From positions 27,838,001 through 27,902,000 of the forward strand of contig CM097884.1 in NCBI GenBank assembly GCA_044892505.1: a stretch of 64,000 nucleotides of DNA. Direction: 5' to 3'. This document shows, in pieces, positions 19,263 through 46,538 of this stretch (position 1 is the first letter of the stretch; the number at the start of each line of letters is the position of its first letter). The notes under the pieces are model-generated. The model saw only the letters and a list, made by a program, of their open reading frames with translations. It was not told the origin of the DNA and did not search any database. The translations under genes were made by a program, and so were the position numbers. This DNA comes from Schmidtea nova (lineage: Eukaryota).

Positions 19263-20789
19263 ATGGCCATCATGAAAACCTTTAAAAACTTTCAATTTTT
19301 CCAAAGATTATTCTCGCATAAATGTTACAAATTTTTGTGCTTCCAAATGCTGCTTGCAATTATGCAAGTGATGAATTATTTACCGAATGGCAATGTAAAT
19401 TGTTGTTCAAATACAAATCCAAAATTCCTTTGCAATTCATATTACAAAATATTCAAAAAAGGAATCATAAGAATGAAAAGACCGGTTTATTTAAAAACTA
19501 TTAAAATGAGTCTCATTGTTATTTTAGTTGTTAGCTTGATTGCCACTATGTTGTTAAGGTGTTCCACGTTTCACTTAGTGACAGATTATTGGAAAAATAA
19601 AGTTTTTAAAGGTTGCAAGTCAATTATGCTTGAATTTTGAACTGAGGAATTCTGAGAAATGTAAATTTTGCAACTTTCAGCGTAAATTGTTTTAATATAG
19701 GTAAATACAATGAACAATAAAATGTTTAAAAATTGAATATTAATATTGTATGGTAATATCTACTGTCGTATTAACATATTGTTGAAAGATTATGTTTAAT
19801 CATTATTTCTCAGAAAAGTAAAATAAGTTCCAAAATATCAAAATTGTTAGCACAATTATTTTCTGGATATTTTTTGCGGTGGTGACAAGGAATTTGTCGA
19901 AATATTTAAATTAAACGGTATTTCACTTTAATTAAATCGTTGCCATGTATATAAATACATATTTTCCCATCATATACATTTATCAAATTAATCAAATCAA
20001 AATATCAAGTAAATTACAAAAACTAAATTGATACAATTACAAAGATGTCATTATAATTATAAAGATAAAATAAATTTATCACAAAATTGTCAAAGATGAA
20101 TTGTCAGGATTTCGAAGATAGAATGTTTTTTTGTCATTGGCAAGGAATATTTGTATTTTATGACTTGTTTGGGGCTGGCTCAATGTGTATTTTCAACCTG
20201 TGTCTAATCATCCCTATGTTATAATCTTCATACAAATCAAATACTTCTACCATTTTCCCTGTATCTAACACAATTGTCAAGTTTCGAAGGATGACAATCT
20301 TAACACCTCCCATCATAGTATTGTTTTTTAAATGAATTGTGGTGACTTTCCCCAACGGGAACGCGGGGGAAATTGCACATAGGGCATCCCTTGAATAATG
20401 AATATATAGAAACGTAAAAATTTCAGTTGTCAAATACGATAATAAAGTGTTGGGCCCGCCAAATCACCTAAAAAACACAACAAAACGAACAAAAGCACGA
20501 AACAATAAAGAAATAATAAAAATAAAAATAGCAAGAAAAACAAATTAAAAATAACAATAAAACGACAAATAATAATTGACAAATTTTCAGTAAGAGGAAA
20601 TTTTGAAAATAAACCGGTAAACAACCGCAAAGGGGGGCCTGAAATCGGAAAAAATAGAATTAAATAAAATAATAGTGCAAATAATTAATTAATTACTTGG
20701 AAAATCAGGACCACCCAGCGAGAAACCGGAAAAGGAAACAAAATAATGTTTAGATTAGATTAAAATAATAAAAATACTTTGATGGACGG

Positions 20790-20834
20790 CCTGATCCTGA
20801 TTGGTCAATCCAACCAGACGGATCAGTATAAATA
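20790..20834 (+). promoter_or_regulatory. Putative LTR Pol II promoter (inverted CCAAT box plus TATA box); second copy at 47653-47697
   Basis: ATTGG at 20800-20804 and TATAAATA at 20827-20834. The block ctgattggtcaa...tataaataccgat is conserved in related LTRs (TATA at 3140-3147 minus strand, 4837, 11815, 13146) while flanks diverge. Confidence 0.6.
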
Positions 20835-21867
20835 CCGATCCAAAAATCACAGACTTAGACTTTTACTTTTCACTCAAGATCAAGACTAAACTTTGATTTG
20901 AGTAAATTTTTTGAAAAAACCGAATTTCATACAAGGAACCACATATTCAAGTACGGAAGTAATTTTTTTTATTTTTTATCTTATATGATGTACCCATGAT
21001 TTTTAGTTTAATTAAAATCTTATATGTAAACGTTATCTTATATTTTTTTTTTGATATTTTAATGCATATAGTTATACTTCCTATGCTGCTCACGCGGCGA
21101 GGGAGTCCGAGTCGTCGTTGTGGGGCCTCACGGTCTCACATGGCGGTTCAACCTTTTTATTGTTTTGGTTTTCATTTTTTGGTAGTTGAAATAATTAAAC
21201 TAAATCATTTAACTAGATATTTATCAGCGAGATTAGAGAATTTTAATGCTTATTTAGTCGAGTAAAATTTTCAGTCACGAAATATCGATAATGCGAATAC
21301 GTCCAGACAGTTTTCTGGCGATAAGTAAAAAATCATCATTTGGTTGTACAGGGGACGTAGCACAGCGGGCGGTAGAGAAGGTCTAAGGGGATACCAGGAG
21401 GGGGTAAAGTACCCGATAGGTGTCAGGTACCCGAGACAAATGGGTTGACACGCTGAGGTTAAATTTGAGGACGAGAGAGCAGGTATAACATGACAAGTTC
21501 TAAAAAATTTTCCAAGTAAATCGATCAAACTGATGAATTTCAATTAAGGTCAAGGTACGGGATATAGCAACTGCATGACAGAGATTAGTAAGACTGAAAA
21601 TCATAAATTCTAAAAATACTTTAAATTCCAATCTAATAAAACCAAAAATCTGTAATTCTAAAAATACTTTTATGCCGATCGCTGTACATAGCGCGGTAGC
21701 TCAAACTAATCTTATCCTGATCGTCGTACATGGCGCAGGGAAACAAATATCTTCTCCGACCGTGGTATATCGCGGTGATGGTTTAAAAATGAGATGGTAT
21801 TAACTAACAGGATTGAGATTAAATATAATTTACATTCAACTCTTTATTGAAAAAAATAAAATGACAG

Positions 21868-22344
21868 ATGCTGACATCATTGAACGAAAGATTAATGCGG
21901 ATTCGGAACTCAGGAAAGGAGGACAGGGCGAATGGATGGGCAAACCAGCTCAAGGAGTTGCCCCAGCCAATTCTGCGGACCATTAACGCCCAAGCGTACA
22001 AGTGGCGACAAGGGTTTGGTCGAAAGTGCCCGTTTTCCATCTGGGACGGAGGAAGCGATGAAATACTCTATCGAGGAGGACCGAACTGGCCTATTTCCCA
22101 AAGGCCGTACTCAAATAAGTTTGGCCGATTAATCGTACTGATCAAGGACACAGATGGACGGACAAGCCGTGTAATTTATTGGGGGCATATCCCTCGTCGA
22201 GAGCTATGCCAACTGGGTCTGTACGAGTTCTTACCACGAAAACCGTTCGGCAAGGAGTGCCAGAAAGGACAACCCTCGTTCTCTTGGGCTCGTCTTCGTC
22301 AGAAACCGATTAACAGCGAATTGCATAGTTTGTTTCGGAGATGA
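21868..22344 (+). CDS. LTR-encoded ORF-A, 158 aa, unknown function
   Basis: Intact and identical in both LTRs. Homologs in at least eight other loci share LKxLP..I.RTIN, CPFSIW, Y.GG..WP and IYWGHIP motifs. Confidence 0.8.
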   Translation: MLTSLNERLMRIRNSGKEDRANGWANQLKELPQPILRTINAQAYKWRQGFGRKCPFSIWDGGSDEILYRGGPNWPISQRPYSNKFGRLIVLIKDTDGRTSRVIYWGHIPRRELCQLGLYEFLPRKPFGKECQKGQPSFSWARLRQKPINSELHSLFRR

Positions 22345-22522
22345 AAACTGATTAACAAATGTTGAAATTGTGTTAAAATATTAGAGTTCATTAGTGAATT
22401 TTTTGTTTTTGAGTTTTGTTTCGCATTTTAATAGTTCATATTCGTAACCTAATAATCCTATGATCAGATTTTAATTTTCATATAATTAAATCATAGAGTA
22501 AATATCCTAAATAAATTATAGA

Positions 22523-23119
22523 ATGAACCCCGATTTGATGCAGAGAGAATTGGAAAAGATGTGGCGGATTCGGAGAGCCCAGGACAAGGAATTGGGTCTC
22601 CTCAAGGCACAATTGATCAAAGCCGAGGCACAGATTGCATACTTGCGCAAAAGCTGGTTTGCTCCGGCCAGAATGAAAGAGCAAATCAGTAAAACCGAGC
22701 GCGCCCAACAGACTGCAGCCGATTACCAAATGGAATGGGAGGCTACAAAGATAGAGCTCCGAAAATGCCTCCATTCCGTGACTGCCTCATATATTGAGAA
22801 GGAGCTCAGAGACCAAATCCGTCCGGTTACGTACCAAGCGTGGACATCAGAAAAGAAGACGGTAAATTCCATTGGCACGGATGTCGCCGATCTAATCGAA
22901 AGTCGGAATGAGACAGCTCCTGCAGCAAATTCAACCACCTCATCGGCGAATACGCACCAAAAACGCAAGCGCATTGGGCAGAAACGGCGAAGACAGAGAA
23001 AATTATTTGCCCAGCAATTACAAAGCCAAGTCGATGGTCTACATCAGATGACCGAGGAGGCATTATTGGCGGAGATTTTTCCTCCGGCGGGAGTTTTTAC
23101 CGAACTCATTAAAAATTAA
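22523..23119 (+). CDS. LTR-encoded ORF-B, 198 aa: coiled coil, WFAPARMK motif, Arg/Lys-rich stretch, Leu-rich C-terminus
   Basis: Intact in both LTRs. A same-length intact homolog at 14782-15378 shows many synonymous codon differences. AATAAA lies at the stop. Confidence 0.85.
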   Translation: MNPDLMQRELEKMWRIRRAQDKELGLLKAQLIKAEAQIAYLRKSWFAPARMKEQISKTERAQQTAADYQMEWEATKIELRKCLHSVTASYIEKELRDQIRPVTYQAWTSEKKTVNSIGTDVADLIESRNETAPAANSTTSSANTHQKRKRIGQKRRRQRKLFAQQLQSQVDGLHQMTEEALLAEIFPPAGVFTELIKN

Positions 23120-23594
23120 ATAAATTGTTGTATTGGCTTAAGAATTTCATCGTTCGTTTAAATCGATTTAATTAACTTTACCAATGATTAGATAAAGATA
23201 GAACAAAAGTATAAATTCATTTTACAAAATATCGAATAGAGATAATTAAATAATTAAGCGAGCATTCGTTGAAATACTTCTCGCAGACTGAGCAATGATA
23301 AAAATAAATTTTCTGAAAGATTCACGCGGAATACATAAGTAGATGATTAAAGCATAAGTCCTTCTAACGGCAGCGATGAACCCGTAAACATAAATGGGGA
23401 GTAGTACTAGCGATAGTGCTCACCTGCCCATCATTGTTTAACCACCCTGCGCATCACCAACTTGATTATATAGGGAAAAAATCAAGGGCGCTTGAGTGTA
23501 GAATTGCAATTTTGTGCATGATCATGGATGAGGGAATCCCTAGTCATTGTTAGAACATTTTTCATCTAACCCCTCCATGAACCCAGCATAAATT

Positions 23595-23612
23595 TGGGGG
23601 CTCAGCCGGGAT
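23595..23612 (+). other. Primer-binding site, tRNA-Pro type
   Basis: TGGGGGCTCAGCCGGGAT, 6 nt after the LTR end; 16/18 match to the canonical tRNA-Pro PBS TGGGGGCTCGTCCGGGAT. Confidence 0.85.
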
Positions 23613-23919: not shown

Positions 23920-24381
23920 ATGGAGGAAAAACTGAAAGAAATCGAAGAATTTCTCAACACAGAAAGCGAAACATTAGGAACAATTGGCAAGAAAATAAAC
24001 CGATTTAGAAAGATTAAATTTCAGGAACCCACAACACAGACTGAAGAGACGGATGAATTAATAAAGATAACAGAAAGAACAAGAAAAATCGACATAGAGA
24101 CCCGCTACAAATGGTACAGAGCACGATTAGAAAATGCAGAACTAAACATTAAGTGCAGGCAAATAGAACAACGATTAACCCCAACATACAATCGATGGAG
24201 GGCGCAGGGGGTAGAAGCAGCGAAAAAATACCGACAGTGCTATATATGTGAGGATAGCGAGATACAAATTATGTTTTTACCTTGCGGACATTTTCGTTTT
24301 TGTAAAATATGTGCCAGCAAGTGCGACCTATGTCCTATGTGCAACCTGATGATAGACGATAAAATTATTGTATATTTATAA
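23920..24381 (+). CDS. IAP-type C-terminal RING (C3HC4) protein without BIR domains, probable E3 ligase, 153 aa
   Basis: C-terminus CYICEDSEIQIMFLPCGHFRFCKICASKCDLCPMCNLMIDDKIIVYL has the spacing and terminal position of XIAP/cIAP RINGs. The N-terminal part is helical. Confidence 0.85.
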   Translation: MEEKLKEIEEFLNTESETLGTIGKKINRFRKIKFQEPTTQTEETDELIKITERTRKIDIETRYKWYRARLENAELNIKCRQIEQRLTPTYNRWRAQGVEAAKKYRQCYICEDSEIQIMFLPCGHFRFCKICASKCDLCPMCNLMIDDKIIVYL

Positions 24382-24864
24382 TAAATAAAATTTGAATGGA
24401 ATTTTATTGATTTATTGATAAGGAAATCATGGGTACAATTGTCATATATAAATAATTTTTGAGCTACTGCAAAGTAGTCCGATAAGAATCCATTGGGAGG
24501 TACCGATTGATCAACTTATTCAAGGTGTATAGAAAGGGGCCCATCGCAAATGTTGGAAAGTTTTTGTGATGTGATTGATCACCACATCCTGCATTAATGG
24601 ACCAACGCGATCTTTTTGTATATTTTGGTTGGGGAGAGAGATAGGGAAATCTTGATGGAGTAAAGCGCGCATAAGAAAAATAAATAAAAAGTTGAAGCAG
24701 ACTGATCAGGAATTAGTTAGGATAGAATAGAGAGATAAATGACATTTTTGAAAGAATAGAAAGGTGCATAATCAGCTCGCATAGAAGTAGTTATAACTCA
24801 GCTGAGAAATTTTAATCGCTAGCGAAGTAGGGAATTGTGATTAACCGGTTAAGTAAAGTTTTAT

Positions 24865-25243
24865 GAGATTTGTCCCTTGAAACAAAGGGTTAAGAGATTT
24901 GTCCCTTGAAACAAAGGGTTATGAGATTTGTCCCTTGAAACAAAGGGTTATGAGATATTTGTCCCTTGAAACAAAGGGTTAGGAGATTTGTCCCTTGAAA
25001 CAAAGGGTTAAGAGATTTGTCCCTTGAAACAAAGGGTTAAGAGATTTGTCCCTTGAAACAAAGGGTTATGAGATTTGTCCCTTGAAACAAAGGGTTATGA
25101 GATTTGTCCCTTGAAACAAAGGGTTAAGAGATTTGTCCCTTGAAACAAAGGGTTATGAGATTTGTCCCTTGAAACAAAGGGTTAGGAGATTTGTCCCTTG
25201 AAACAAAGGGTTATTAGCGGTTTGTCCCTTGAAAAAAAGGGTT
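24865..25243 (+). repeat. Tandem array, about 13 copies of a 29-bp unit GAGATTTGTCCCTTGAAACAAAGGGTTA(A/T)
   Basis: Directly visible; no unique spacers. Confidence 0.95.
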
Positions 25244-25298
25244 GAGGCCAATGAGCCATATTGAATGACCTAGCTAGGCGTTATGAGAGATTAAGTTA

Positions 25299-25700
25299 AG
25301 GCCAAGAGAGCCATTTGAGAGATTAAATTGAGGCCAAGAGAGCCATTTGAGAGATTAAATTAAGGCCAAGAGAGCCATTTGAGAGATTAAATTGAGGCCA
25401 AGAGAGCCATTTGAGAGATTAAATTAAGGCCAAGAGAGCCATTTGAGAGATTAAATTGAGGCCAAGAGAGCCATTTGAGAGATTAAATTAAGGCCAAGAG
25501 AGCCATTTGAGAGATTAAATTAAGGCCAAGAGAGCCATTTGAGAGATTAAATTGAGGCCAATAGAGCCATATGAGAGATTAAATTGAGGCCAATAGAGCC
25601 ATTTGAGAGATTAAATTGAGGCCAATAGAGCCAGGTGAGATAGTAAAATGAGGCCAATAGAGCCATGTGAGATATAAAATTGAGGCCAGAAGAGCCATAG
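25299..25700 (+). repeat. Tandem array, 13 copies of a 32-bp unit AGGCCAAGAGAGCCATTTGAGAGATTAAATT(G/A)
   Basis: AGGCC recurs every 32 nt from 25299 to 25683; the unit degenerates toward the 3' end. Confidence 0.95.
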
Positions 25701-26315
25701 TGAATTATAGAGATATCCGGATAAATAGTAACAGAGGGAATATAGACCCTTAGTATAATCGTCGACGAGATTGAGAGTAATGCGCACCAGTAGTTAAGAA
25801 AATGCGAGTAAAGCTGATTATGCAACCTTAAGTAAAGCATGCAAGGAGAATAGTAAAAAATTTTTTTTGGCTGACCGGAACAACCGGCAGAATAAGTAAA
25901 AACGATTGCTAGCAGGGAATAATGAATAGAAATGATAAAATAATGATAAACGAGTCAGAAAGACTCAGGGAATTAGAGCGCTCGAGCGACCAATAAATTG
26001 GGAAACTGTGGGAAAAGTAATCAATTTGATAAAACATAGATAATTATTACGACGTAAATAGATAATTGTGACCAGTCTATAGATAATTTAAATAGACTAA
26101 AAATAAAGGGGAATCTGGGAATTGGGAAATAATGAAAACCCAGTAATAAGTAATCCCGAAAGAAAGGGAATAAAAGCGCGACGATAACAATAATGTATCG
26201 TTGAGGACCTTTGTATTTTAGATATACCAATCAATCAAATCAATCAATCAAGCAAGAAGAATCAGAAAACGATAAGAGATAGAACAGGAAAATTGAGTAT
26301 ACAAAAGTAATCCCC

Positions 26316-29300
26316 TTGAGAAAAGGAGCAAAGAGTGTCGTAGTAAAGCCAACGGAAAAGAAAGTCGGTAGCAACAGTAATAAAAAAGACAAAAATAGTA
26401 CTACAACAAAATCAACAAAAAAGCAGAAAGCCGGCAAAGATAACCCACAAGGGAGTAAATCGAGGAAAATAATAAGAGATAAATCGATTACCGAGAACGA
26501 TAAATTGTCAATAATAAGCAACAGCTCAAGTAACAAAGAAAACCAAGCCGAACCCAAAGAGAACCAAGCAAGTGAACTAGAGAGCGACGAAACTAACAAC
26601 GATAATATCGAAGAAATAGAACACGAGATAGAACAAGAAGGAGAAATCGACGAAACTAACAACGATAATATCGAAGAAGTAGAAAACGAGGTAGAACCAG
26701 AGATAGAAATCAACGCGAGTGATAACGAAAGTATAATATCAGATAACGAAGGAATAAGAGAAACAGAAAGCGATTCAAGCTCGAGTAAAACGGAAGACGA
26801 ACATAACAACGAACTAGAAACAAGAGGAAACGAAAGTAAAATAACTCAAGACAGCGGAATTGAAATGGGCGAACCAAGAGAAGAAATAAAGGATAAATTT
26901 TCAGGAGAACCGTTTAACGGAGATGCGAGTAAATTAGAAACCTTTTTAAAAGAATTTGGCATATTCGTGGAAGTATGCAAGTGGAAAGCGGAAACAACAG
27001 TAAGCAGAATTCAGTTATATTTGAAAGATAGTGCATTGGACCTATATTTGGAAGCGAAAAATGGTACCAATCCACCTACAAGCTGGACAGCGATAAAGGA
27101 TTTTTTCCAACAAACATTTGGAATAAATAAAGTGCTAAGCGAGGCATTCATAGAATTTTCAAAGAGGAAACAAAAGATGAATGAATCTAATGCGGTATAC
27201 GCGAGTGAACTGAAAAAATTAGCAAAATCGGTATTCAAGGATGGAGGTCCAATAAACGAGGAGTTAATGGCAGCCATCTTCATAGGAGGACTAAGAAGAC
27301 CCGACATAAGAGCGCAAGTAGGATGTCAAGGATGCAAAACCATAGATCAAGCATTAGAAACAGCTAACCGATTTGAATTGCATATGATAGGAAGCGAAGG
27401 CAGAATTTATTTAGCCATGGACACAGCGCAAACCGAACCAGAAGTAAATCTCAACAATCACATTCCAAATTCGCAACAATTAAACCGACCACCCCCTCAA
27501 CGAAGGAATGAAGGAAATAAAGTGCAGAACTTTGAAAATCAAAACAATTACAACCCTCAAAGACAAACAAAACAATGTAAAACATGCGGGAAATTGGGAC
27601 ACTGGCAACAAGAATGCTATCAAAATTTGAATTGCGGAAAATGTGGAGTTAAAGGACATTCGGAGAGTAGATGTTCTACAATAATCTGTTTTAATTGCGG
27701 ACGACCTGGTCACTATTCAAGAAATTGCGGACAAAAAAGTAATCAACGAGGAAACTGGCAGAGTAATGGGAACCGACCAAATTACGGAAATCAAGCAAAT
27801 ACCGTAAACCGACCAGACTATGGGAACCAACAAAACAACAATAACAATAATCAGAACAAAACCACCCCCAAAGAAATTCATTTGATGCAAGAAGTTCAAA
27901 GGTTGACGGAACTGATAAACAATACGACGAGAGGAAATCCGCAAACCAATCAACAGCAAATTAGCATGATGAGAAAAATAGAAAGCGAAAACGAACGATT
28001 GAATCGAGAAAGTCAAGCACGACACGCTCAGGAATGGGCAAGAATACAAAGAGAGGATGAACAAAAACAGCAAGAAAGAGAACGACAACCTCTAAGAATT
28101 AACATGCTAAGAGCAACAAACCAAACAGACACTCGCGAGAAAGAAACCACACTGGAAATGAATTCGATAGACCCGAACCCAGCCGACAACGAAAGTCGAA
28201 AAGAAATAGTACAAAAAGATGAAGAAGTAGAAAAAGAAATAAAAAAGGAAGGGGAAACTGAGATAAACCAAGAAGAGAGAAGAAAAATTTGGAAAAAAGG
28301 AATGATGGTAATCATGCCCAACGACCATATGTTTCGATTCCAATATAACGCAAAAGAAAAGGTGGAAATACTGTTCAATAAAGTAAACCAGATGATTCCA
28401 GGAGTGACAAAACTGCCCAGAGAAGCGTTCTTACAAATAGGAGATGCACCATCAGTAAAATTGAAATTACCGGATATATGGGAAAACGTGGGAGTAACAG
28501 AGACAAAAAGAAATGTGATGAGAATTAAAGAAATAGAATCAGAAGAAATTCCACCACCAATACGTCACGAAACCCGAATCCGGCGAATATTTGAAGGAAA
28601 AATGATAAGAAGACGTTTAAAAGAGATAGACGAGTTGGGAAAGAAAATGGAAAAAGTCGAAGTAATAGAAGACAAGAGTGAACCAACACCAGAAATTGAC
28701 AAAAACGAACCAGAACCAACGGAGAATATACAAGGAGAAACGAACCAAATAGCACATATTAATATGCTAAGAAATACCACCAGAGAGTTTTCCGATGAGG
28801 AAGAAGATAGTGACATCAGCAGCCTAGCAGGAGACATATTAAACGAATCCGAAGACGAAAATAAAGAGAGAGAAGTAATAAAGACCTCAGAACCTACACA
28901 GATAAAAGTAGATGAAATCCAGAAATTATTAGATAACTCGCTAGAGGTAATATATAACGAAGAGTTCATGGACAAGAAACAATATCGGAAATTCATGAAA
29001 GCATTATTACAAATGAACTACAAAGAATGGTTACAAGATCGGGAAATAGACATGTTAAATCGATACGTAGGGAAATTAATAGAGGAACCACTCCTCAATT
29101 ACACCATCTCAATAATAATAAATACATCTACACCAAGAATCTGGATCAAAACTCCATTTACAGACGATATCTACAGATGGGTAGAGGATAGACTAGGGAG
29201 CTCATATAAAAACAAATTCATCTATTCGCAGAATAGACTCGTAAAGAGAAGAACGCACTTAGTGGAAACAGGTATATGGCCAGGAGAAATAACTCTGTTA

Positions 29301-32300
29301 TCAATATGCGATGAAAAGGAAGAAGAGAACCTACAAGAAGTTGCAAGGGAGGCAAACACGTGCTTCGAAAGGAGAATAAAACCTCGGTTAGAATACGAGA
29401 AAGAACGAGTCTTACGAAAGAATCTAAATTCCCTGATAGAACAAATCATACCACAAGTCAAAAAACATAGAAAAGAGTTAATGAGAAGCGAATACGAGAA
29501 ACTGAAACGATGTATTGAGTGCATACGTGACACAAGTCACACGAGATGGTCACAAATCTCACACGACAAATTAATCGCAAAAATGGGAAAAACAATGTTC
29601 AGACAAGGAAAAATAACAGATCTAAAAATTTCGGTAGAATTACCTAATGAGGACACCAAAGAAATCGAAGTGGTAGCGGATTGCACCATTAGGGAATTAA
29701 TAAATGTCATCAACGAGACACTAGTGCAAAGAGAACCAGAAGACGAATGGGAAGACGACATAATCATACAATACAACGAACATGTATTATGGGATCACGA
29801 TGAGAGACGACTATATAAAATCGGTATATGGGATAATCACCAAACCATCCACGTTAGCAGAATGGACGATACACCAAGAGAAACTGCTAAAGACGAGAAA
29901 AAAGAACGGGAACGACGGAAAGAAGTTGTGCGTAAATTACAACAAATAGTAGAAATTTATCGAAATTGGCGAATTTGGCCAGAGTGGGAAAATGTATTAG
30001 AAAAACTCAATCTCAACAGACGAATACGAACACCCGTAGAAAAACAATGGAACGAGAAAGGAAAATGTTGGGAACCAAAAGAAGGGGAATATGAAGAGGA
30101 ATATAAAAGAGGAATTGAAGATGACTGCGAACCAGAGATAGGAAGAGTTTGCATGGTAACAAGGAAAGCTACGCCAATAGACCTAGATGGACCAGAAACC
30201 GCGGCTATGTGGCTAGAAAGGGAAAAGCAAAAAACGGAAGAATTTGTCGAAATATTAAAAACTAATGCGCACGGTAAGAGAAAAGTAATAAAGGGTCTCG
30301 CAGATTTTTTCGTGGTAAATGGGGAAGATATAACATGCTTGCGTAAAGTAGCAAAAGCAATCGCGGAATATAAAAGAGTTAACGAGTGGTGTCCGGAACA
30401 ACTAGACCACGTAATTAGGAAATGGAGAAATCAAGAATTCTCGCAGGAAATTCCACAGAAAGTACATTTAAGAATAATATACCCAAACAAGGATAAGGAA
30501 GAGTTGTGGGTAGGAATAGCAGAAAAAATTCGAGATATTAAAAAGAAATTGAGATACGAACCACCATTCCATTTACAACACCAAGGACGATCATTAGATA
30601 ACAGTTTGGAAATCGGAATAACACCAGCACAATTAGACCTCATGAATACCTTGACAGTAGAAGCAATAGCGGGTCAACCATTGAAACGTAAAGAAGAAAA
30701 CCATAAACCACACGGAAGTATAAGCACGCCGAGCCCGATCAAATCAGCACTAACACCAGGGACAAGTTCGAGACGATCTGAGACAACACCCAGAGGAAAT
30801 AGAGAAAGGACTCCACCACAACCATATGACGTGGACGAAATATTTACAGACAGCGACGATATGATAGAAGAATTAACCGAATTAACAAAGGAAAAAGACG
30901 ACAATATTTTTGAAAGAATACAAGAATTACCTACGACAATACAAGTAACCAACACCGGAGAAACAGAAGTCGAACAGGAAATAATAGTAGAAGAAGTCAA
31001 CGATTTAACAGAAGATGAAACCAGAGGAGCGTATGCCGAAAATGTACAATTAACCCAGGAAATGGAAAGATGGTTAGAAGAAAGAGCTAACGAACCAAGA
31101 GATGTCACGGAAGAAACAGGACGGGCAACAAGGTTTGTGGAAACAGGTACAGGAATGGATAGACGACCTCGAGGTAGACCCAAGACAGATCCAGCAACAG
31201 TAGTTATCAGAAATAAGGATGAAAAGAGACAAGATCAATGGGAATTATGTTTAAAGAAATTAAACAAAATCGCGGAGATAAAAGAAAAAGAAACAACACC
31301 AATATGTCAAGGGGAGGAATGGATATCAAAAACAATAATGGAGATATTGGCAATAATTGATCCGGAATTGAGAAAATACTGGCGCTTAACTGAGATAAGC
31401 GAAAAGGCGAAGTCATTACACAGCGCAATCGCACCCATCTTACCGGAATTCATAAAAGAAAAGACGAAATCAAATCACTTAGACTGGCAAGGAACCACTA
31501 TGTTAATAAAGAAACTGACAGAAGGAGCGGAAACAGATAACAAATACGTAATAGCTATTGCATACACGATCTACAATCTGTTGACACTGAGTAGAGGTCG
31601 ACCAAAACCCACTGCATTAGAGAGACATATAAAAAATACCGCAAAGATTATAGCTAGAGAAATAGAACCCTACGTCATTAACAAAGGAGGATGGGAAACA
31701 TTTATAAAAACTAACCAGAAGAAAACGCAAGCCAAGAATATGAAAAAGAAATTCGAAAAAATATTGGAAGAGTTAGCAAAAGAACAAGCAGGAACGGGAA
31801 ACGTGAAGTCATCAATGAATTTGAGTTCTATAATAATGATGATGTTGATATGGATGATTAGCACCGATAGCGCAACAGCATTCGAAGTGTTTGATTGCGA
31901 CCAAATGAAGTTAGGAGAAAAGTATTCATTGAGAGGTACGGAGCAATGCAAAGATGCGACTCCAGTAGAGTTGCAAAAGATTAAAAAGGAACAATGGTAC
32001 CACGTGTATCAAGAAGCAGAACTCATAAAGACAATGGTGAATGAATGTAAGGTGCAGAAGACGAGATTCGCATTCTACTGCGGGAGAGGACACTATTCAG
32101 CAATTGTCATGCCAGGAACGGAAAGAGAACCAATCGTGTTACAAGGAGAAGACTGCGAAGCACTGTTTAAACATGGAGAAGTAACAACAAGAGATAAAAT
32201 CAAGATAAGAGGAAAGCCAGGAATGATGATGCAACAGACGTACTATGTAGCAGGACGGATTACGGGAGGAGAAGGATATTGTCAAGGAGAAACCTACCCG

Positions 32301-35300
32301 ATATTCGGAGTACCCGCAACCAACTTAGTGGTGATGGATACGTATATAGTCGAATTGAAAAGCTATGAAGCATTCTTTGAACCAACAACGGGAGAAATGA
32401 AAACGTTATCCATGTGTAAAATCGACAGGAGCATGTGTCAAACGGGAATGTCAACATTAGTGTACAAACCAAAGGTAAACGAATGTCAGTTACAACTGCT
32501 ACAAGGAGCAAAGTTCGACGAAATCCAAGGAAAAACGTTCCAGGAAGAAGACGATGACGACAAAGATAGAGCAAAGCATCTCAAGGAAGCTTTAGAGAAT
32601 AAAAGACAACTGAAACCAGATCATAGAGAAAAACGAATAGAGATGAGAGCCACACCAACAGTATTGATAACCACAAATCAAGATGTGGGAATGAGATTCA
32701 TAAAAGGGAAAGCAACCCTTAAGTGTAGTACAACGGTATACGAAACGAATTATCCAGGAATATATGTGTCAAAACAAGAAGTGCCAAATGCGAAACCCAA
32801 AATCGACACAATGGATATCAAACTACACCTATATGTGAATAATAAAATGGATTTCCTATTCCATAGAGGACAAGCCTCATTACAAAAAGTGTATTACGAT
32901 CTGATAAACAATGATTGCATACTGAATCGAGAAATATTAAAGACAAAGTTGGCCGTAGCGATTACGAATCCAGATAGCGCGATGCCATTATTACCACTGA
33001 GAGAAGGACATTTCGGAAGAGTGGTTGGAGAAGCAATGTATGTATACATTTGCGAAAAGACACACGCGTCGCTAGCAGCAACAACGCAGTTGAAACCTGG
33101 AACCTGTACAAATGAGTTAGAAATCGATTACAAAGGAAAAGTACGATACGTTCAACCGGTGACGAGAATCATCAATCCACCAGGGTTTGAACCAAATCCA
33201 TTCAACTGTAGTAATGCGTACGGACCACTTTATCAAAAACCAGATGGTAAATGGGTTATGTTCCCAGGAAGATCCGAAGTGATAGCACCAAGAGAATTCG
33301 AGCTAATGCAGTTGTCAAAGGATAGGCAATTCAGCGACGTAGATGTCTCAAACAATGGAATATATAGCCCAAAAGATTTAGAAGCAGCAAGGCAGAATAT
33401 ATTATTCCCAGCGAGAAGAGAAGCATTACTGTCAAATATCGTAACGATAACAGGAGGAACGGATTATCGAGAAGGACCAAATTATGAACTATTGTTGTCA
33501 CCAGCACATTTCAAGAAAGCCACCGAAAATATGATGAAAGCAATGTGGGGAAGATTCTTGATATTCGGACAAATGATGGCTGGAATACTAGGGGTAATAT
33601 TAATAATCCAAATCGTCAGAGTGATAATAACGCAAATGCTCGCGTGTTTTGACATCTACAAGAGAGAAAAGAAAGTGAATTGGAAAATGGTAGTAGGGTT
33701 TTTACCATTCCTTGCGAAAACAATGGTGTTACACGGTCACTCAAAAGATATCCACCGAATAAAAAGACTCCTGAAGATATTAGCAAAAATGAAGGGAACA
33801 GACGAGGAAGTAGGACGCAAATTTAAAAAGATAATGAATGACGAACAAGCAAGACAACAGCTCAAGAGAGAAAGAAAAGGTTTATGGGAGAGGATGAAAG
33901 GATATAAAACCCAAAATGATTCAAGTGACGACGACGATGACGATGACGACTATAAGGGAGGACAAGTGTATAAGAACCAAGCACCACAATACATCGAAAA
34001 GAATCCAGCCGACGCATGGAAATGTTACGCACCTCCACCAACCCTGTATCAAGAACCACTACAAGGAGGAAAAAATAGCACGATGCAAATGATGCCAATG
34101 ACAAATGTATACCCCATGATACCAGAAGATTATAAAATGAGAAGATGTAGAAGCGTAGATCCACAAGGAGATACACACACGATCGCAGTAATGTCATCAA
34201 ACACAGGTCCAGTATTAACCACGACAATAGAGATTAACGGAAGGGAAATCGAAGCAATGATCGACACGGGAGCAAACATTTCCGCCATCGACATCAAATG
34301 GATACCACAAGAGCAAAGACGAGAAATAGAAAGGACAAACGTCCATGTAATTGCATGTAGCAAAGAAGTTGTAGAAGTAGCAGGAAGATGGTGGGTAAAA
34401 ATACGCCATTTAAACACGGAAATCGATACGTACGTAGCTGTCATACCAGCATTAAGCGTACCTTGCATTATCGGAACAGATTTGATGCCAGCACTATTTA
34501 ATGAGATTGTAATCGACCTCGGAACAATGAGACTAAAAGATCGCACAGGACAAATATGCGCAATAGAAGCCAAAGTGACAAGTTCAAAGCAAATGATAAT
34601 ACCCGCAAGAAAGGAGAAAATATGTTACGTAAAAATAGATCCGACAATCCAAGGGGATATGATTTTCGAACCAAGTAAGAGATTCGAGAAAAGAAAAGCG
34701 TTGCCAATGGCAAGAGGACTAGTTAACATAAACGATGATGGAGAAATCCCAATAAACGTAGTAAACTTCGATGAAGAGGACAAAATAATATACGAAAACG
34801 AAAGATTAGGTAAATTAACCCCAATGATGGACATCGAACTACCAATAGAAGGGGCAGAGAAAGATAAAGAGCCAACCTGGAATATTGATAGTGAATTATT
34901 AAATGAGGATCAAAGGAAGCAGCTAGAAAAACTCCTGATAGAGTATAAGGATATATTTGCAGCATCCGATTTAGATCTAGGAACATGTGATGTCACACTA
35001 CATACAATACCATTAACAGATGAAACACCAATTGCATTAAGGCCGTACAAATTAGCGGAAGCACAGAAAGCAGTAGCAGAAGCAGAAGTGAAGAAAATGT
35101 TGGATGCAGAAGTAATCGAACCAAGTTGTTCACCCTGGCAATTTCCAGTGGTAATGGTAAAGAAGAAAGATGGAACACAGAGATTCTGTATAGATTATCG
35201 AAGATTGAATACAGTGACAAAAAGGGATACTTACCCATTACCAGACATTAATGAAATGCTATTAACATTACAAGGAGCAGCATATTTTACATCGTTAGAT

Positions 35301-38300
35301 CTGAAAAGCGGATATTGGCAAATAAAAATGAAGGAAGAAGATAAAGAGAAAACTGCCTTTACCATCGGTAGAGATTTATATCAATTTCGAAAAATGCCAT
35401 TTGGATTAACGAACGCACCAGCATCATTTCAGAGATGCATGAATTTCGTCACCCACGGAATAAAGCAGTGCATGGTCTACATCGACGACTTATTGATTTA
35501 CTCTAGTACATTCGAACAACACATACAGGATATTCGAGATGTATTCGTTAGACTTAGACAATGGAAGTTAAAACTCAAGCCATCCAAGTGTGACTGGGCG
35601 AAAGAGAAAGTAACATTTTTAGGACATATAGTGTCAGCAAAAGGAAAAGAACCGGATCCTAGAAATATCGACAAGGTAAAAGAATGTCCAGTACCAAAAA
35701 CAATAACCCAGATACAAGAGTTTCTTGGGTTGTGTGGATACTACAGAAAGTTTATAAAAGATTACGCCGGAATAGCAAAACCTATACAGGAACTGGTAAA
35801 GAAAGATGTATCATTCATATGGGGAGATGAACAACAAACAGCCTTTGAAACGTTGAGAGATAAATTGATAACCGCACCCATATTGGTACACCCAGACTTT
35901 AAGAAGCCATTCCTACTTGCAACAGATGCAAGCGGATATGCAGCAGGAGCCGTATTAGGACAATACGACGACGAAGGAAAGGAACGCGTAATCGGATATT
36001 ATAGCCGGACATTCAAAAAGCATGAGAAAAATTACTCAGTAACAGAACGGGAAGCACTAGCAATTATATTAGCTATTAAACACTTTAAATATTTACTATG
36101 GGGTCACATCATCTGCATAACAACAGATCACCAACCGCTTGTATGGTTAGGACAGCACAAGGAAACATCCAGTAGATTAATGCGATGGGCAATGCAGTTA
36201 CAGGAGTACTCACCGGACATAAAATTTAAATCAGGAAGAGCGAATGCGAATGCAGATTGTATGTCAAGACTGACATTTCCAGAACTAACCGATCCTGATG
36301 TACAACGAATTTGTGTATTAATAGCGGAGGATTTAGATTTTAGTGAGTTAAAGAAAGATCAACAAGAAGACAAAGAATTAGGACAAATCATAGAGTTCCT
36401 AACATCTCGAAATATGGAAGTATTCAAGGATAATAAGGAACTAAAGGAACATATAGGAAAATATCAACATCGCTACATAATAAATAAAGGATGGTTGTTA
36501 ATACAAGACGGAGAAAAGAGATTGATGTGTTTACCGGAAAACAGAAGGAAAGAGATAATGATCCAGTACCATGATGGGAAATTAGGAGGTCATATGTCCG
36601 AGAAGAAGACAATAAACCGTATGAGACAAAAATATTATTGGCGAACAATGGAAGAAGATATAAAGGAATGGATTAAAAATTGTCTAACTTGTGCAACCAG
36701 AAAGGATAGTGGGAGGAAATGGAAAAACCCGCTACAACCAATGCCGATACCAGCAGAGCCAATGACAACTATAGCAATGGACGTAATAGGACCATTACCG
36801 GAAAGTCTAAACGGAAATATTTATATATTGGTAATAACGGATTATCTGACGAAATTCCCGGAAGCATTTGCCATGCAAGACCAAAAAGCAAAAACCGTAG
36901 CAAAAATTCTAGTGGAAGAAATATGTTGCAGATACGGAACTCCAAAACAAATACTCACAGACCAAGGAACTAATTTTATGAGTGAGTTATTAAACGAGGT
37001 GACAAACTATTTCAGAATAGCAAAATTGAGAACTTCACCATATCACCCGCAAACGAATGGACAAACGGAGCGATTCAACGGCACATTGATTAGAATGTTA
37101 TCAAACTACGTCAGCAAACACCAAACTGACTGGGACGAATACATAAAATTATGTTTAATGGCATACCGAATGTCGATACATGCAGCAACAAAACTAAGCC
37201 CATTTCAACTTATGTATGGAAGAGAATGCAACATGCCCATAGATTTAGAGTATCAGCCACCATTATCGCAATATATGGAAGATGACGACTACGTAACCAA
37301 ATTCAAAGAAAGAATGCAGGAGATATGGAAAACGGCAGAACTCAACATTAAATTTTATCAGGAAAGTTATAAGGATTTACACGACCAGAAGAAAAATGTT
37401 AAAGCGAACGACCTAAAACCAGGAGATTGGGTGATAATAGAAACTCCCGAAATAATACCAGGAACTGTTAAGAAACTCCAAAGACCTGGAAGAGGACCTT
37501 ATGAAATTATATACAAAAAGGACAACAATGTCAAAGTTAAGCTAATAAATCGACCGTTAATACGACCCATATATGTAAACACCTGCAGATGTAAGAAGGT
37601 GCCTAAAACGATAACTACAACACCAGAAAATCGAATAATAACTAGATCACAAACAGCCAGGATAAATATGCTCAGAGCTAACGCAACTGAAGACGACAAA
37701 GCAGAAATAAGGCAAAAGGAAATCAGAAATAAAGAAATCATATTGAAGGCGAGAGAGATAATGGGAAGATGGCATGTTAGAGACGAAGCAGGCATATCAA
37801 GGGATATTAGACATATAATTAGCCGTTACGCACAAGGATTACCAACCGAACCAATTATTTCTGAATTATTGGAAAAAATCCCTGAAATACTCTTATTGAA
37901 AGATGTAGGAGGACAACCAGCCTTACATAATGCGATAGAGTGTAAAAACATGGAAAGAGCAAAAGAATTCCTAAAAATCGCAAAAGAAACAAACCAAAAC
38001 TTGGACGTAGGGAATCGGGAACGAGAAACTCCATTAATGACAGCCGCAATCCACCAAGCAGATAAAGAAATGATAGATCTATTGATAAAAGCTCATTTCA
38101 GTTGGACAGAACGAGATAGAGAAGACAAAACAGTACTAAATCACGTAATATGGAGTTCTCACCAACCAATGCTGAAATACATAATAGCTAACTGCACTTG
38201 GGAGATAGACGAATTGGTTAAAAGAGACATTATCAAAGAGGCAATCAAAATTGGTAAATGCAACACGATCCGTAAGTTAATCAAATGGAAACGACCAGAA

Positions 38301-41300
38301 GAGGATACATGGGTCTTAGACATAAACGAAGTATACAGCGAAGGACAAAACGCGCTGTTAAGATATCTTCTGAAATTTACTTGTGATCAGAAGACATTAC
38401 TAACCTTATTAGACAGAGGAAACATAAACATCACAAAGAATGAAGAAGAATACAAATTCGATAAAGAGAAGGAAGCCTTATTCAATAAGATTAGGAAATG
38501 GTGTGCGAAACCACTTGATAAACTAATAACATACAAAGACATAAACAATTTTAACGAGAAATACCAGACGATAGTAAGCGAATATGAGGAATTAGTAAAA
38601 ATCTTAAACCATCCCGAAAAATGCAAACAGGTTTTAGAGAAAAGAGAAAGAGAAAGTAACAAGAAACTCACACCACTCTTCAAAGCTGAAGCACCATACC
38701 AAGCTAGACTAGATGCGATACAAGAAAAAGCAAAAGAATTGTTACCGGAATTCGAGAATAGTAAACATGCACTGGAAATACTCGGCGCATTAGTTGAAAA
38801 AGTACACGCATACGCAAAAGGAACATACAATGGTAACGACATAGTAATAATAAAAAAGGAGATGCCAGTAACATTCCTATTACCAAAAGACGGAATAATG
38901 CCCATACATAGAGCTCTACGAAATGGCAAAGATAGGAAAGTAATGGAAATTGCAAGAGTAATGCTAAATTGCGGAAGCAATATGAATATGATAGACGAGA
39001 AAGGAGATACACTTATGGTATTTGCAGCAAGGGCCAAAACGAAAACAAAGGTATTAGAAGAACTATACAAAGCAGGTGCAGGACTTACAGGAAAGACAGA
39101 TAAAGATAATTCGATATTGGATGTAGCATTATTAACACACAATTGGGAAATGGTCAATTTCATTAAAACCGTCCCAAATCAGGAAGAAATAGATCACCTA
39201 ACTGATACAGTCAAGAAACCCAGTGTACTAGCAATGATGAACAACGTCGAACTAACAGAATCAATACTTACGTGGATAAATCCTAATACTAACGAACCAG
39301 CATTCAGGATTAATAAGTTTACAGAACATAACCAAAACTGGTGTATAAGAAGTGCCTTAATAACGTATAAATGGCCAGAGATATTGAAGATGTTTATGGA
39401 AAGAAAAGATCTAAAAATCACAACCAGCCCGAAAGAGGAAAAATACACAGGCAAATGGAAAGAATTGATGAAGACATACATCAACAATTGGATCAAGGCC
39501 AAAAAGGAAATCTTGGAACATAAATCCACTAACAAAGTAATACCGGAGCAGGTAGAAACACAAGAATTTGAGGCAAGTAATCTAACGACATTGGCATATG
39601 CAAAATTGATAGAAGAAATCAATGTCGAGGACGACATTTTCGACGAGCCAGGGGGAGATGACAATACAGATAGTGACGACGGTAACAACTCAGAAAATTC
39701 AAACGATCACGAACCACCCGATAAAGAGGAAAACGAGAGAAAAGACAAGAAACGAGACAAGGAAGAAAAGAAAAGTGAAGACGAAAAACAAAGAGATGAA
39801 GATGGAGAACAAGGAAAAAACGACCAAGGAGATAAAAATGACACCCAAAGAACAAGTTATAAATCAACCATAAAACCATTCTTCAAACCAGAATTACTAT
39901 TATTAACAGTGATTTTAACGTTAATTAACCCAAGTCAAGGAATGACATGTGAAGAAAGGGCAATAATACAAATAAAAAACGCAAAAGGAATCGAACGAGT
40001 ATGTTGGTCAAAAAAGGACAAAATCACGGAACAAAATAGCCCGATGGATTGCAGAATCTCAAAACACGAGCAAGAGATCATAGAGATCAACGACCTAGAT
40101 CTAGATACCTGGTACAAAATATGCACCGTTAGGAAACAAAAGCATCCAAGATCACACAACACAATCGCATGTGCAAAATACCAAACACCTAAAGCAGCCA
40201 TGACAATACAACAGTCACCCAAAGGAGATTACATCATCGGAAAATGTGGAAGAACAGAGACACAGGGAACAGAAAACAAAAAACCCCAGGTAATAGATAA
40301 GCAAACAACACCAACCCTACGAATTACAATAAAGAGGCCCGAAGCAAGAGTTGCCACAAACGAAACCGAAAGAGTGTCTTACCAAATGGAAGTATTATGC
40401 TTAGCACTCATACTAATAATAATAAAACGATTAGAGGAAGGAATAGAAATTGAAACTATGACAATAACAGAAGTGGAAGATACACAGAACACTAACATAA
40501 AATGTTGGGCGAGGAATGACGAAGAAATCGGCGTAAACGAAATAAGGAAAAGTCGAAAGCCAACAACAAACAAAGTAATTAAAGTATCCGAAGTAAGAGC
40601 AGACAAGATGTACAAACTATGCCTACTTGAGAAAGAGAGGAACAAGAAAGGTACCACAAAATGTAAAACATTCCAACCTGGAGAGGTAATAAAGTTCCGA
40701 AGGAGAACGAGGAAGAGAAATAAACAAATCAAGCGGAAAGTAAACATAACATTAGAAGTAAAAGAGATAGAACCAAATGTGAAAGGAGTATGCTGGAGGA
40801 AGTACGAAAAGGAAGTAAATAAAAGAACGACACCACAATGTCAAACAAACACAGGAACAACGACGATTCAAATAAAAGGTTTAGAAAGTAAACAAACCTA
40901 CGAAATATGTTTGGTAAAGAAAAATGATCAGATAACGATAAACGACCTAGAATGCGGAATATACACCACTTCATCCGGAACAAGAACTAAAACGTTAACA
41001 CGGAAAAATAAAAGGAAACAACGAAACAAAGGAAAACCGAAGTACACCACTACCTTTAAAAACAATAAACAACCAATAAGCCAGGAAGTTACGACAAAAC
41101 CAGAGAGAAAGACATCAGCAACTCTAACATTATGGAAAATAGAGAATAAAACATTGGAGATATGTTGGATAATAGTCCAGAAAAATATAAGAAGACAATC
41201 AAGAGAGTGCAGAAAAACAAATAAAGAAATCAAGATCGAAAAACTACAATTTATTAGCGAGTACGTCGTATGCGCAATAGAAAAAATGGACAAACTAGGA

Positions 41301-42551: not shown

Positions 42552-43331
42552 GAGAGAGGAATCCAAGAGGGAATAGAGCATTGCAAGACATTCCAAAAAG
42601 GAGAGATACTGAAATTCGATGAAGAAGAATTAACAAAGACAGAAAGAACTCTGACATTAACAGGACTCGATCAGACAGTTAAAGGAATATGTTGGACAAA
42701 GCATAACCCAGAAGGGGAAGAAGACAACCTAACCCACTGTAAAGAAATAAAGAATAAAGAAAAAGTCGAATTAAAGAAAATGGAAGTAAATAGGACATAC
42801 GCGATATGTACCTTCACCAGAAAAGGTTCAGAAAAACCAGAATGCGGATTATATCAGATCTCAGAGAAACTACAACAACAGATCGAACCAGGAAACGTGG
42901 AAAACCGAACAAAAGAAAATAACTTCAAACAACTACTAAACCGCCATTGGTCTACACAAGAAGTAATGAACAAAGTTAAGAGTCAAATACAGAAAGAGAA
43001 GAAGCCAGAGGCTCAAACCCAAAATGAGATTAAAGCGAATCAGAATAAAATCAAAGCAACAAACCGTGGAAAAACAGTAATAGGATTAATCAGCATAGGA
43101 ATATTAATAGCATATGGGATAATGACGACAAGCATGATAATATATTGGAGATACAAAAAGAGAAACAAAGCGACAGCCATACAATGGCCAGATATCAAAA
43201 TCATGAAACTAGGAATAGAAATACCAGAGGAGATACAGAAAGAATTTCAAAGAAGAACGAAAGGTAAAGAATTCTGGAAACAAATAGAAGATGAAGAACG
43301 ATACGAAGAAAAGACGATAATGATGGTATAG
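39891..43331 (+). other. Seven Cys-containing FN3-like repeats with signal-like and TM segments, in two duplicated cassettes
   Basis: C-W motifs at 40002, 40503, 40791, 41163, 41979, 42426 and 42690, each followed by I.I..L...T.Y.IC-type strands. TM helices near 41589-41660 and 43077-43150. Confidence 0.6.
42552..43331 (+). CDS. In-frame continuation of the polyprotein after the TAA at 42549-42551 (ORF-finder start 42780)
   Basis: Same frame as 26316, no further stops. ERGIQEGIEHCKTFQKGEILKF..VKGICWTK aligns with the upstream repeat KKGTTKCKTFQPGEVIKF..VKGVCWRK. Confidence 0.8.
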   Translation, partial: ERGIQEGIEHCKTFQKGEILKFDEEELTKTERTLTLTGLDQTVKGICWTKHNPEGEEDNLTHCKEIKNKEKVELKKMEVNRTYAICTFTRKGSEKPECGLYQISEKLQQQIEPGNVENRTKENNFKQLLNRHWSTQEVMNKVKSQIQKEKKPEAQTQNEIKANQNKIKATNRGKTVIGLISIGILIAYGIMTTSMIIYWRYKKRNKATAIQWPDIKIMKLGIEIPEEIQKEFQRRTKGKEFWKQIEDEERYEEKTIMMV

Positions 43332-43461
43332 GGGCGGATTATGACTGTAAATAATAGTGTAAATAACAAAGCATTACCGTAATAGTATGGGTATCGATAT
43401 TATAAAAAAAAAATTGTAAAAAGCTAGAAAAACAAAGTAAATGATGTATATAATTTAGAAA

Positions 43462-43818
43462 ATGACCGAACAGGACGAAACAACTGAAATAACTATGGCT
43501 ATGAGATGGAAGGCACAATGTGATTTATTAGTACGAACAGTCAACTCATTACAGAACCAATTAGCGGAAAGACAAATGTTATTATCAGAAAGTTATAACA
43601 ATTGTTTCGAACAATTACACAGAATAGAGGAACAACAAAGAGCGATAACTGAACTCACCAGAGAAAATCAAACGATAAGCAACACCAATCAAAGACAAGC
43701 AATAGAAATAAACCATTTAACACGAGGAGAAAGAGAAGGATCCGAAGAAGGATGGATGAGTTGGGTAATAAATAGATTAAACAACGAAGCGGAACCAGAT
43801 TCAACGAATGAGCCATAG
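43462..43818 (+). CDS. Accessory coiled-coil protein, 118 aa
   Basis: ATG-started ORF with heptad pattern, same A-rich codon style as the element, bounded by the shared spacer motifs. Confidence 0.65.
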   Translation: MTEQDETTEITMAMRWKAQCDLLVRTVNSLQNQLAERQMLLSESYNNCFEQLHRIEEQQRAITELTRENQTISNTNQRQAIEINHLTRGEREGSEEGWMSWVINRLNNEAEPDSTNEP

Positions 43819-43911
43819 ATAAATAAAGCGGAAAACTGTAAATATGTAAAAATAAAAACAAGAAAAATCCAAAAATAAATGACAAGTCGAATGTATATAT
43901 TATTGTAGAAA

Positions 43912-45288: not shown

Positions 45289-45401
45289 TGAAGGAAGTAA
45301 CCATGTAAATAAAATGTATAGAAACAATATGAATTAACAAATAATCAAAAACAATAAAAATAAAAAATGATTAAATATTCTTTTTATCTGTAATTATAGA
45401 A

Positions 45402-46463: not shown

Positions 46464-46538
46464 ATGTGCAGAAACCCAGTGTAAATAAATTATGTAAAAT
46501 AAAAAGTGTCAAGCTGTATTGACCAATGTATAAAAGAG

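Follow-up and report, generated by a model that had tools for sequence, protein, structure and literature searches.

When an envelope gene lies between gag and pol and in the same reading frame as both, how is the envelope protein made, and what does it do? The question is raised by a 64,000-nucleotide stretch of the Schmidtea nova genome (GenBank assembly GCA_044892505.1, contig CM097884.1, positions 27,838,001 to 27,902,000 of the forward strand; hereafter the window, whose own numbering is used throughout). The window contains a Ty3/gypsy retrotransposon of 30,004 bp (20448-50451), of which 23,722 bp form the internal part between the long terminal repeats (LTRs); the element and its features are on the + strand unless noted. 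Its main open reading frame (ORF), at 26283-42551, runs for 5,422 codons from stop to stop with no internal stop, or 5,228 amino acids (aa) from the first ATG at 26865. It encodes, in order, Gag, a Bcl-2-like domain, Env, protease, reverse transcriptase (RT), RNase H, integrase and ankyrin repeats. At the local base composition, an ORF of this length has a chance of about 1e-170, and the longest open runs in the remaining two + frames over 31000-35000 are 64 and 57 codons. Profiles and structural models place Env among the class III fusogens, in the type shared by chuviruses and herpesvirus gB, and it is predicted to be active in fusion. It is probable, at roughly 0.75, that a single precursor is threaded through the endoplasmic reticulum (ER) and that Env serves the entry of particles into other cells.

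The Envelope Module

The env module occupies 31815-34200 and consists of a signal sequence, an ectodomain, a transmembrane (TM) helix and a cytosolic tail. The putative signal sequence (31815-31880, aa 1845-1866) starts at Met 31815 and has a conserved hydrophobic h-region; cleavage would fall before 31881. The ectodomain (31881-33542, 554 aa) has 14 conserved Cys and one N-glycan sequon, and is followed by a single TM helix, assigned by hydrophobicity score, at 33573-33629. The tail between env and protease (33630-34202, about 190 aa) ends in a likely protease-site motif, at which the precursor may be cut, and continues stop-free into the protease at 34221. A reading made from the letters of the window and their translations (the sequence-only reading) had placed signal, ectodomain and TM helix upstream of the protease in one ORF over exactly this interval, and that layout is borne out. 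Its description of the ectodomain as Cys-rich is right for a conserved skeleton and wrong for content, the 14 Cys being 2.5% of the residues. Every family member that covers the 14 has all of them, and among stand-alone glycoproteins they are kept in 59-61 of up to 61.

The same reading had called the glycoprotein chuvirus-like, and profile, sequence and structure searches agree. Pfam assigns the region to PF24664, Monjiviricetes_fusion (E 5.8e-73, 246 bits vs a cut-off of 27), and it is 24% identical over 612 columns to the glycoprotein of Tacheng tick virus 4. A search of 1.84 billion representative sequences with env gave 945 matches at E <=0.001; long polyproteins rank highest among them, and stand-alone proteins of about 650 aa come next. 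Of 20 matches looked up, two are named chuvirus glycoproteins and two more are in insect genome protein clusters. A single-sequence search of the PDB with env returned nothing meaningful (two PEX1 rows, E >0.6). With a 79-sequence env profile, 35 of the 36 PDB rows are herpesvirus gB, aligned along the central helix with a best E of 0.0026.

The AlphaFold model of Env (predicted local distance difference test score, or pLDDT, 87.7) has a gB-like fold with a long central helix and a beta fusion domain. Comparison with the glycoproteins of chuviruses and rhabdoviruses, with gB and with GP64 had been proposed as a check, and similarity to fusogens was found, with gB best among solved structures. 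With Foldseek, the best matches in BFVD are glycoproteins of chu-like viruses (E 2e-36, TM-score up to 0.72) and the best in the PDB is gB (E 1e-13). In VIA, gB has Z 9.5 with a root-mean-square deviation of 7.4 over 406 aligned residues, and rabies G, thogoto Gp, Chandipura G and GP64 score lower.

Relatives and Evolutionary History

The placement of env before pol is a property of a wider family. In a search for longer proteins, all six matches have PF24664 and protease domains, three of them also RT and integrase (35-38% identity), and env is upstream of protease, RT and integrase wherever positions were mapped. In ten further full proteins a single chain carries env ahead of RT-RNase H, the identity to the present env being 26-41%. 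Two metagenome loci extend the comparison to nucleotide sequence: L002 encodes gag, knuckle, env, RT, RNase H and integrase in one ORF of 3,703 codons, and in L001 a 3,426-codon ORF spans a Bcl-2-like stretch, env and pol.

In an env tree of 57 of the 125 qualifying sequences, unrooted and made by a quick method with no approximately unbiased test, a branch with SH-aLRT 98 divides all 17 polyprotein-type rows from the chuvirus, insect and BEL/Pao-linked proteins; this split is weakened because the sequences were picked by search rank. The BEL/Pao-linked protein P0065, in which DUF5641 is followed by the glycoprotein, groups with the stand-alone glycoproteins and not with the present env group.

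Comparison of glycoprotein and RT trees had been suggested as a way of recognizing a capture. For 11 elements, Env and Pol trees have the starred close groups and the deepest split in common, and pairwise identities are correlated (Spearman 0.88 over 55 non-independent pairs). Congruence is not complete: the present element and P0014 swap places between the trees, on an env branch that is itself starred (95/98), so there is some discordance. Since the trees largely agree, env is an old trait of the lineage rather than a capture by the present element. Of the independent capture by a Gypsy lineage envisaged in the sequence-only reading, what survives is that the env group stands apart in the unrooted tree from those chuvirus, insect and BEL/Pao-linked copies that were sampled; neither a recent capture nor a direction of transfer between virus and retroelement is supported. 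Between the close elements P0003 and P0004, env differs by about 0.05 changes per site and RT-RNase H by about 0.19, which hints that such elements may exchange env.

Topology and Proposed Mechanism

A Met in the 10 residues preceding the env h-region is found in only two of 17 family members, of which the present copy is one, and in all 17 the frame is open for 148-1,868 residues before env. The env signal is thus likely to be internal. Internal signals are known in flavivirus and alphavirus polyproteins. Of 19 proteins taken for TM scoring, two lack the motif used to locate env and two end before the TM helix; in all 15 scored, the first hydrophobic stretch after the ectodomain is a TM helix and the second is non-spanning. 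A second TM helix considered in the present element (33678-33734) was rejected on the same grounds. The strong hydrophobic segments before Pol are even in number in each of eight long polyproteins, two in six of them and four in P0154 and L001, where the extra pair sits between env and pol. An even number would return Pol to the cytosol. The threading through the ER that had been proposed for this polyprotein is thus supported, if indirectly, by the internal signal and the segment count. An I-x-(M/V/A)-hydrophobic motif, picked by eye, recurs at nine places, several of them at domain borders; it flanks the protease on both sides and is also found before the integrase region. These are putative sites for the element protease.

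The absence of a frameshift, also claimed from sequence, holds: the single ORF needs none, and none was detected. A programmed -1 frameshift before env was considered at the slippery heptamer at 31796 and rejected, the heptamer having no downstream structure (z +0.8) and no counterpart at that place in L001 or L002. In-phase slippery heptamers are depleted in general, at 14 vs 42 in codon shuffles. No pyrimidine-rich splice acceptor is present in the 500 nt before the env signal. No env-skipping joint with GT..AG ends is among the 15 of 79 contig joints listed, a result with no bearing on splicing. The single ORF would yield Gag, Env and Pol at 1:1:1 only in the absence of both splicing and premature drop-off.

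A mechanism can be proposed on this basis. The whole element would be translated as one polyprotein, its N-terminal Gag and cargo being made in the cytosol. The internal signal sequence would then open ER translocation, and the class III ectodomain would fold in the ER with formation of its disulphide bonds. With transfer stopped by the single TM helix, protease, RT, RNase H and integrase would appear on the cytosolic side. The Env N-terminus would be freed by host signal peptidase, and the element protease would cut the cytosolic parts. Membrane-wrapped particles might then acquire a coat of Env trimers, which would fuse them with a different cell of the animal and so carry the element from cell to cell, perhaps reaching stem or germ cells. 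The sequence-only reading had suggested cell-to-cell or horizontal spread; inheritance is taken to be mostly vertical in PMC13524379. Signal cleavage would also part Gag from the rest of the chain, and Pol would stay joined to the Env tail instead of to Gag. This consequence is not found in the accessible parts of the literature on these elements, and a keyword search with subscription journals, Grohme 2018 and Sacco 2022 outside its coverage returned no paper that has the membrane topology or the processing of such polyproteins as its subject.

Several points weigh against this mechanism. The element is known here from sequence alone, and expression, processing, particles and fusion are all projected from it. 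The entry mechanism of gB-type elements is termed unknown in the consulted text of PMC13524379. The tips of the predicted fusion loops are modestly hydrophobic. Hydrophobic segments were scored with a simple window in place of SignalP or DeepTMHMM, and the N-terminus is incomplete in several relatives. No BIR domain was matched by Pfam in the main ORF, the four downstream ORFs, the LTR ORFs or the leader ORF. Finally, Met 31815 stands at the start of the signal in the present copy, so a subgenomic env message is possible.

This last point leads to a more conventional scheme, in which Env comes mainly from a message that is spliced or started internally at Met 31815, and a Gag-rich product arises through splicing, drop-off or frameshifting; the output would not be 1:1:1, and the giant precursor would be a minor species. 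Retroelement particles usually need excess Gag, and the heptamer at 31796 is in phase and lies 29 codons before mature env. However, the Met is peculiar to few copies (15 of 17 relatives have none within 10 residues before the h-region), and the frameshift and splice signals such a scheme would draw on have the shortcomings described above, from the unstructured and unshared heptamer and the depletion of slippery sites to the missing acceptor. Production of Env by this route is fairly unlikely.

A different kind of objection accepts the protein and questions its task. Env may be kept as a membrane anchor or assembly platform for Pol and the Bcl-2-like domain, as a cell-cell fusogen or as a receptor blocker, with transposition confined to the inside of cells. 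In favour of this are its modest loop hydrophobicity, the apoptosis and ubiquitin cargo of the element (Bcl-2-like domain, IAP RING, TRAF and ankyrin), the co-divergence of Env with Pol, and the mostly vertical inheritance described in the relevant parts of PMC13524379. An anchor would have no need, however, for a five-domain fusogen with a full Cys skeleton, kept in ten relatives at 26-41% identity, and the fusion-loop motif of the present env is also found in a real chuvirus glycoprotein (P0037); a purely non-entry role is quite improbable. There is hardly any room left for the idea that env is a fragment of a chuvirus glycoprotein, that is, a recent endogenous viral element in frame by chance, or an assembly artefact. 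Such insertions are common in or next to retrotransposons, according to the portions consulted of PMC7642597 and PMC10084718. The present env is nevertheless 35-41% identical to other polyprotein envs vs about 24-26% to any chuvirus protein seen, and many near-identical copies are found in four public sequencing runs, in all 30 bins examined. The shared order in relatives, the one-sided grouping of all 17 polyprotein envs on the well-supported branch and the ORFs of L001 and L002 refute this explanation. Synthesis as one ER-threaded precursor, with Env acting in entry, thus remains the preferred reading.

Other Domains of the Polyprotein

Gag (27015-27728) has a capsid-type domain (Retrotrans_gag, E 6e-5) and three CCHC knuckles by motif reading, of which Pfam scored two stretches (zf-CCHC, E 1.5e-7). 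A possible ubiquitin-like domain at 29565-29867 is weak, with Pfam Ubiquitin_4 at E 0.099 only; the relative P0020 has a ubiquitin match at E 0.03.

Just before the env signal, at 31308-31724, is a helical region ending in a BH2-type GGW motif. Its model is of low confidence (pLDDT 54), and every Foldseek row listed for it belongs to the Bcl-2 family (best E 8e-3), as do the top 14 rows in VIA (Z 6.2-7.3). A profile of the region matches Bcl-xL at E 0.014, ranked under two designed coiled coils, and single-sequence PDB and atlas searches were blank or low. The agreement of the weak profile match with the low-confidence model suggests a Bcl-2-like domain. A GGW-type motif is found 51-88 residues upstream of env in five proteins and is visible in all seven of an aligned set; other relatives lack it. 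After cleavage, the remnant of the env signal would be spaced from the Bcl-2-like domain roughly as a tail anchor is.

Pol (34221-37049) comprises an aspartic protease (RVP, 34221-34493), RT, RNase H, an H2C2 finger and the integrase core, assigned by Pfam as RVT_1, RT_RNaseH, H2C2 and rve, without DUF5641. The closest solved structure to the RT is that of yeast Ty3 (E 3e-89), and this match, together with the order protease, RT, RNase H and integrase, supports the Gypsy lineage named in the sequence-only reading. No Pfam match was found in the interval between protease and RT (34560-34790), which is dUTPase-like in the Burro elements discussed below; the stretch is nonetheless conserved in relatives.

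Ankyrin repeats follow the integrase, with the best-scoring stretch at 37923-38192 (Ank_2, E 8e-13), and then duplicated cassettes of signal, FN3-like domain and TM helix at 39882-43331. The two copies are 31% identical (E 6e-38), and the second is broken by the stop at 42549-42551, beyond which the same frame is open to 43331. The FN3 label (atlas score 0.78, Pfam E 0.04) is a lead only. The cassettes look like captured cell-surface proteins. Hydrophobic signal/TM pairs are also present after the integrase in P0003, P0004, P0154, L001 and L002.

The Element and Its Copies

The 5' LTR (20448-23588) and the 3' LTR (47311-50451) are each 3,141 bp long. The 5' LTR starts with TG and ends with CA, the pair differs at three of 3,141 sites (99.9% identity), and a 4-bp target-site duplication is found at both flanks. 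With so few differences and an intact duplication, the insertion must be very young. The element is a young, structurally complete, giant Ty3/gypsy retrotransposon of a Burro-like kind, as judged from its sequence. A canonical TGG primer-binding motif is absent directly after the 5' LTR (23589-23610), and an ARAGORN search gave no tRNA. The published Schmidtea elements are likewise given no tRNA type in the consulted text of PMC13524379, which gives no LTRs for them.

About half of the sampled sequence words are present in four public sequencing runs from a single study. Thousands of contigs from these runs, of unspecified kind, cover all 30 bins of 26000-45900 with many variants, which fits a multi-copy family. 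Depth summed over env is about twice that over the flanking parts, but this measure cannot rank genes and was given no weight. Among the 40 of 1,971 variant places listed, third codon positions account for 19 of the 33 in the ORF (p 0.004), pointing to constraint among copies.

Older LTR copies of the same family, 70-88% identical and on both strands, are present at 316-552, 3093-3525, 4456-5136, 10379-10570 and 12770-15864, and a broken gypsy pol fragment lies at 7368-9503 on the - strand; the locus is thus a nest of related insertions. Each LTR of the young element has two ORFs, of 159 and 202 codons (21865-22344 and 22511-23119, with copies at 48728-49207 and 49374-49982), for which no family match was found, and a related frame is kept in an older LTR copy at 14737-15378. 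The coding strand has a strong A-over-T skew (0.27-0.55) across 26283-47108.

Relation to Known Elements

The sequence-only reading had implied that an env gene in this position is new, and in this it is overtaken by the literature: the architecture has been in print since 2019, and the gB-type class in flatworms since 2026. Planarian Burro elements (Arkhipova and Yushenova 2019, PMC6431247), credited there together with GYPSM1 to Grohme et al. 2018 and Jurka 2007, exceed 30 kb, with long LTRs, an internal part of up to 25 kb and an ORF1 of 4,873-5,140 aa. As described in the available sections of that paper, they have BCL2-like, ankyrin, MATH/TRAF and BIR motifs, a ubiquitin/SUMO-like domain before BCL2, a dUTPase-like domain between protease and RT, and env between BCL2 and the protease. 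Their env is called the first in-frame env between gag and pol, with matches to mononegavirus fusion glycoproteins of arthropods and fish. BURRO1 is expressed and under piRNA control, according to the relevant part of PMC8532177, its RNA rising in Schmidtea when the piRNA pathway is knocked down; Burro is merely mentioned in the passages seen of PMC11410931 and PMC13238120.

By description, the present element has in common with Burro its length of more than 30 kb, long LTRs, an ORF of about 5,000 aa, a CCHC Gag, the BCL2-like domain, env before protease, ankyrin, MATH/TRAF and tandem repeats. It differs from the published account in that TRAF is encoded in a separate downstream ORF, that only an IAP-type RING, in the leader ORF, was found and no BIR, and that FN3-like cassettes follow the integrase; such membrane cassettes are unlisted in the Burro description in section 7 of PMC6431247. 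The portions consulted of that paper link env to an F-like gypsy Env, whereas the present data point to class III. Because no BIR was found and the likeness is by description only, the element is filed as Burro-like and not under the named Schmidtea mediterranea Burro-1 to -4.

The second body of work concerns gB-type elements. In flatworms, nematodes and bryozoans, elements are reported to carry only gB-type env, in GAG-ENV-POL order, and an ancient origin is argued (Chary and Hayashi 2026, PMC13524379, in the text available); six Schmidtea elements have 1-215 copies each. The present element has the Ty3/gypsy Pol, gB-type env, gag-env-pol order between LTRs and many copies of the Platyhelminthes group C1a GAG-ENV-POL 'errantiviruses', whose ENV is termed HSV/gB-type, and on sequence it is filed with these gB-type Ty3/gypsy elements (operational errantiviruses). 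In domains I-II, Schmidtea elements 5 and 6 of that study have, by eye, motifs and Cys spacing like those of the present env. There, however, the elements are given as three ORF modules, and polyprotein, frameshift, single ORF and words in splic- do not occur in the main text, nor does Burro. Nematode metaviruses, cited there from Sacco et al. 2022, also have env before pol; the title of that paper refers to RNA-virus glycoprotein capture by a metavirus.

With the glycoproteins of Jingchuvirales, the present env has in common PF24664, the Cys skeleton and about 24-26% identity; in the viruses themselves G has a gene of its own and measures about 650-700 aa, whereas here it is inside a retroelement polyprotein. 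Chuvirus glycoproteins have been described in BEL/Pao elements and insect genomes (Dezordi 2020, PMC7642597; 2023, PMC10084718; both in the parts consulted). The Anakin BEL/Pao elements of mosquitoes (PMC7642597) likewise combine an LTR element with a chuvirus-like glycoprotein. They belong to another superfamily, and the present Pol is not of BEL/Pao type, lacking DUF5641 and being closest to Ty3.

The value of the present element is that it offers a clean and very young case in which the gag-env-pol frame is uninterrupted, and that it joins two literatures: one on Burro, whose env was tied to gypsy Env and mononegaviruses, and one on gB-type GAG-ENV-POL elements, whose main text mentions neither Burro nor a single polyprotein. 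It also makes testable how a retroelement assembles when Gag and Pol are separated by a membrane protein, and whether the envs of gB-type retroelements can fuse membranes autonomously. It may even be, as a tentative and on balance doubtful extension, that Burro-type elements are infectious, enveloped, giant flatworm retroviruses with a flavivirus-like plan. Their polyprotein would cross the ER several times, with signal peptidase splitting Gag from Env-Pol, and Pol would enter particles on the Env cytoplasmic tail and not as Gag-Pol. What is left of the env signal would anchor the Bcl-2-like domain by its tail, and the signal-FN3-TM surface proteins would be cut from the same chain. If this were true, Pol on the Env tail would be a new mode of assembly for a retrovirus-like particle, and the particles a route between stem cells.

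Accessory Genes and Features of Relatives

Outside the polyprotein, a leader ORF of 153 aa (23920-24381) encodes a C-terminal IAP-type RING finger (zf-C3HC4_3, E 3e-11; best PDB match the XIAP/cIAP RING, E 9e-10). It is followed in the leader by two tandem-repeat arrays with 29-nt and 32-nt units (24826-25763, by repeat scan). Downstream of the main ORF, a TRAF-like ORF at 43909-45288 has a RING, TRAF zinc fingers and a MATH domain (MATH_2, E 7e-21; zf-TRAF, E 7e-8). Two further ORFs at 45375-47108, one of 362 aa that is coiled-coil-like and one of 201 aa with hydrophobic segments, were assigned to no family. The IAP-type RING, Bcl-2-like domain and TRAF make an apoptosis/ubiquitin toolkit.

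Relatives vary in other respects. Extra aspartic-protease-like domains occur within one polyprotein, with six Pfam stretches in P0154, four in P0007 and several in P0017; the present element has one. An RNase T-type (DEDD) exonuclease domain is encoded in a downstream ORF in L001 (10617-12104) and L002 (12085-13470), and by eye a similar stretch seems to precede env in P0016. The env-pol polyprotein P0009 is deposited under a Flavobacteriaceae genome bin, probably through host contamination. L004, a viral contig of 11.3 kb, encodes a polymerase of Mononegavirales type and a glycoprotein matching PF24664, followed by one more ORF, in the chuvirus-like order L, G, third ORF.

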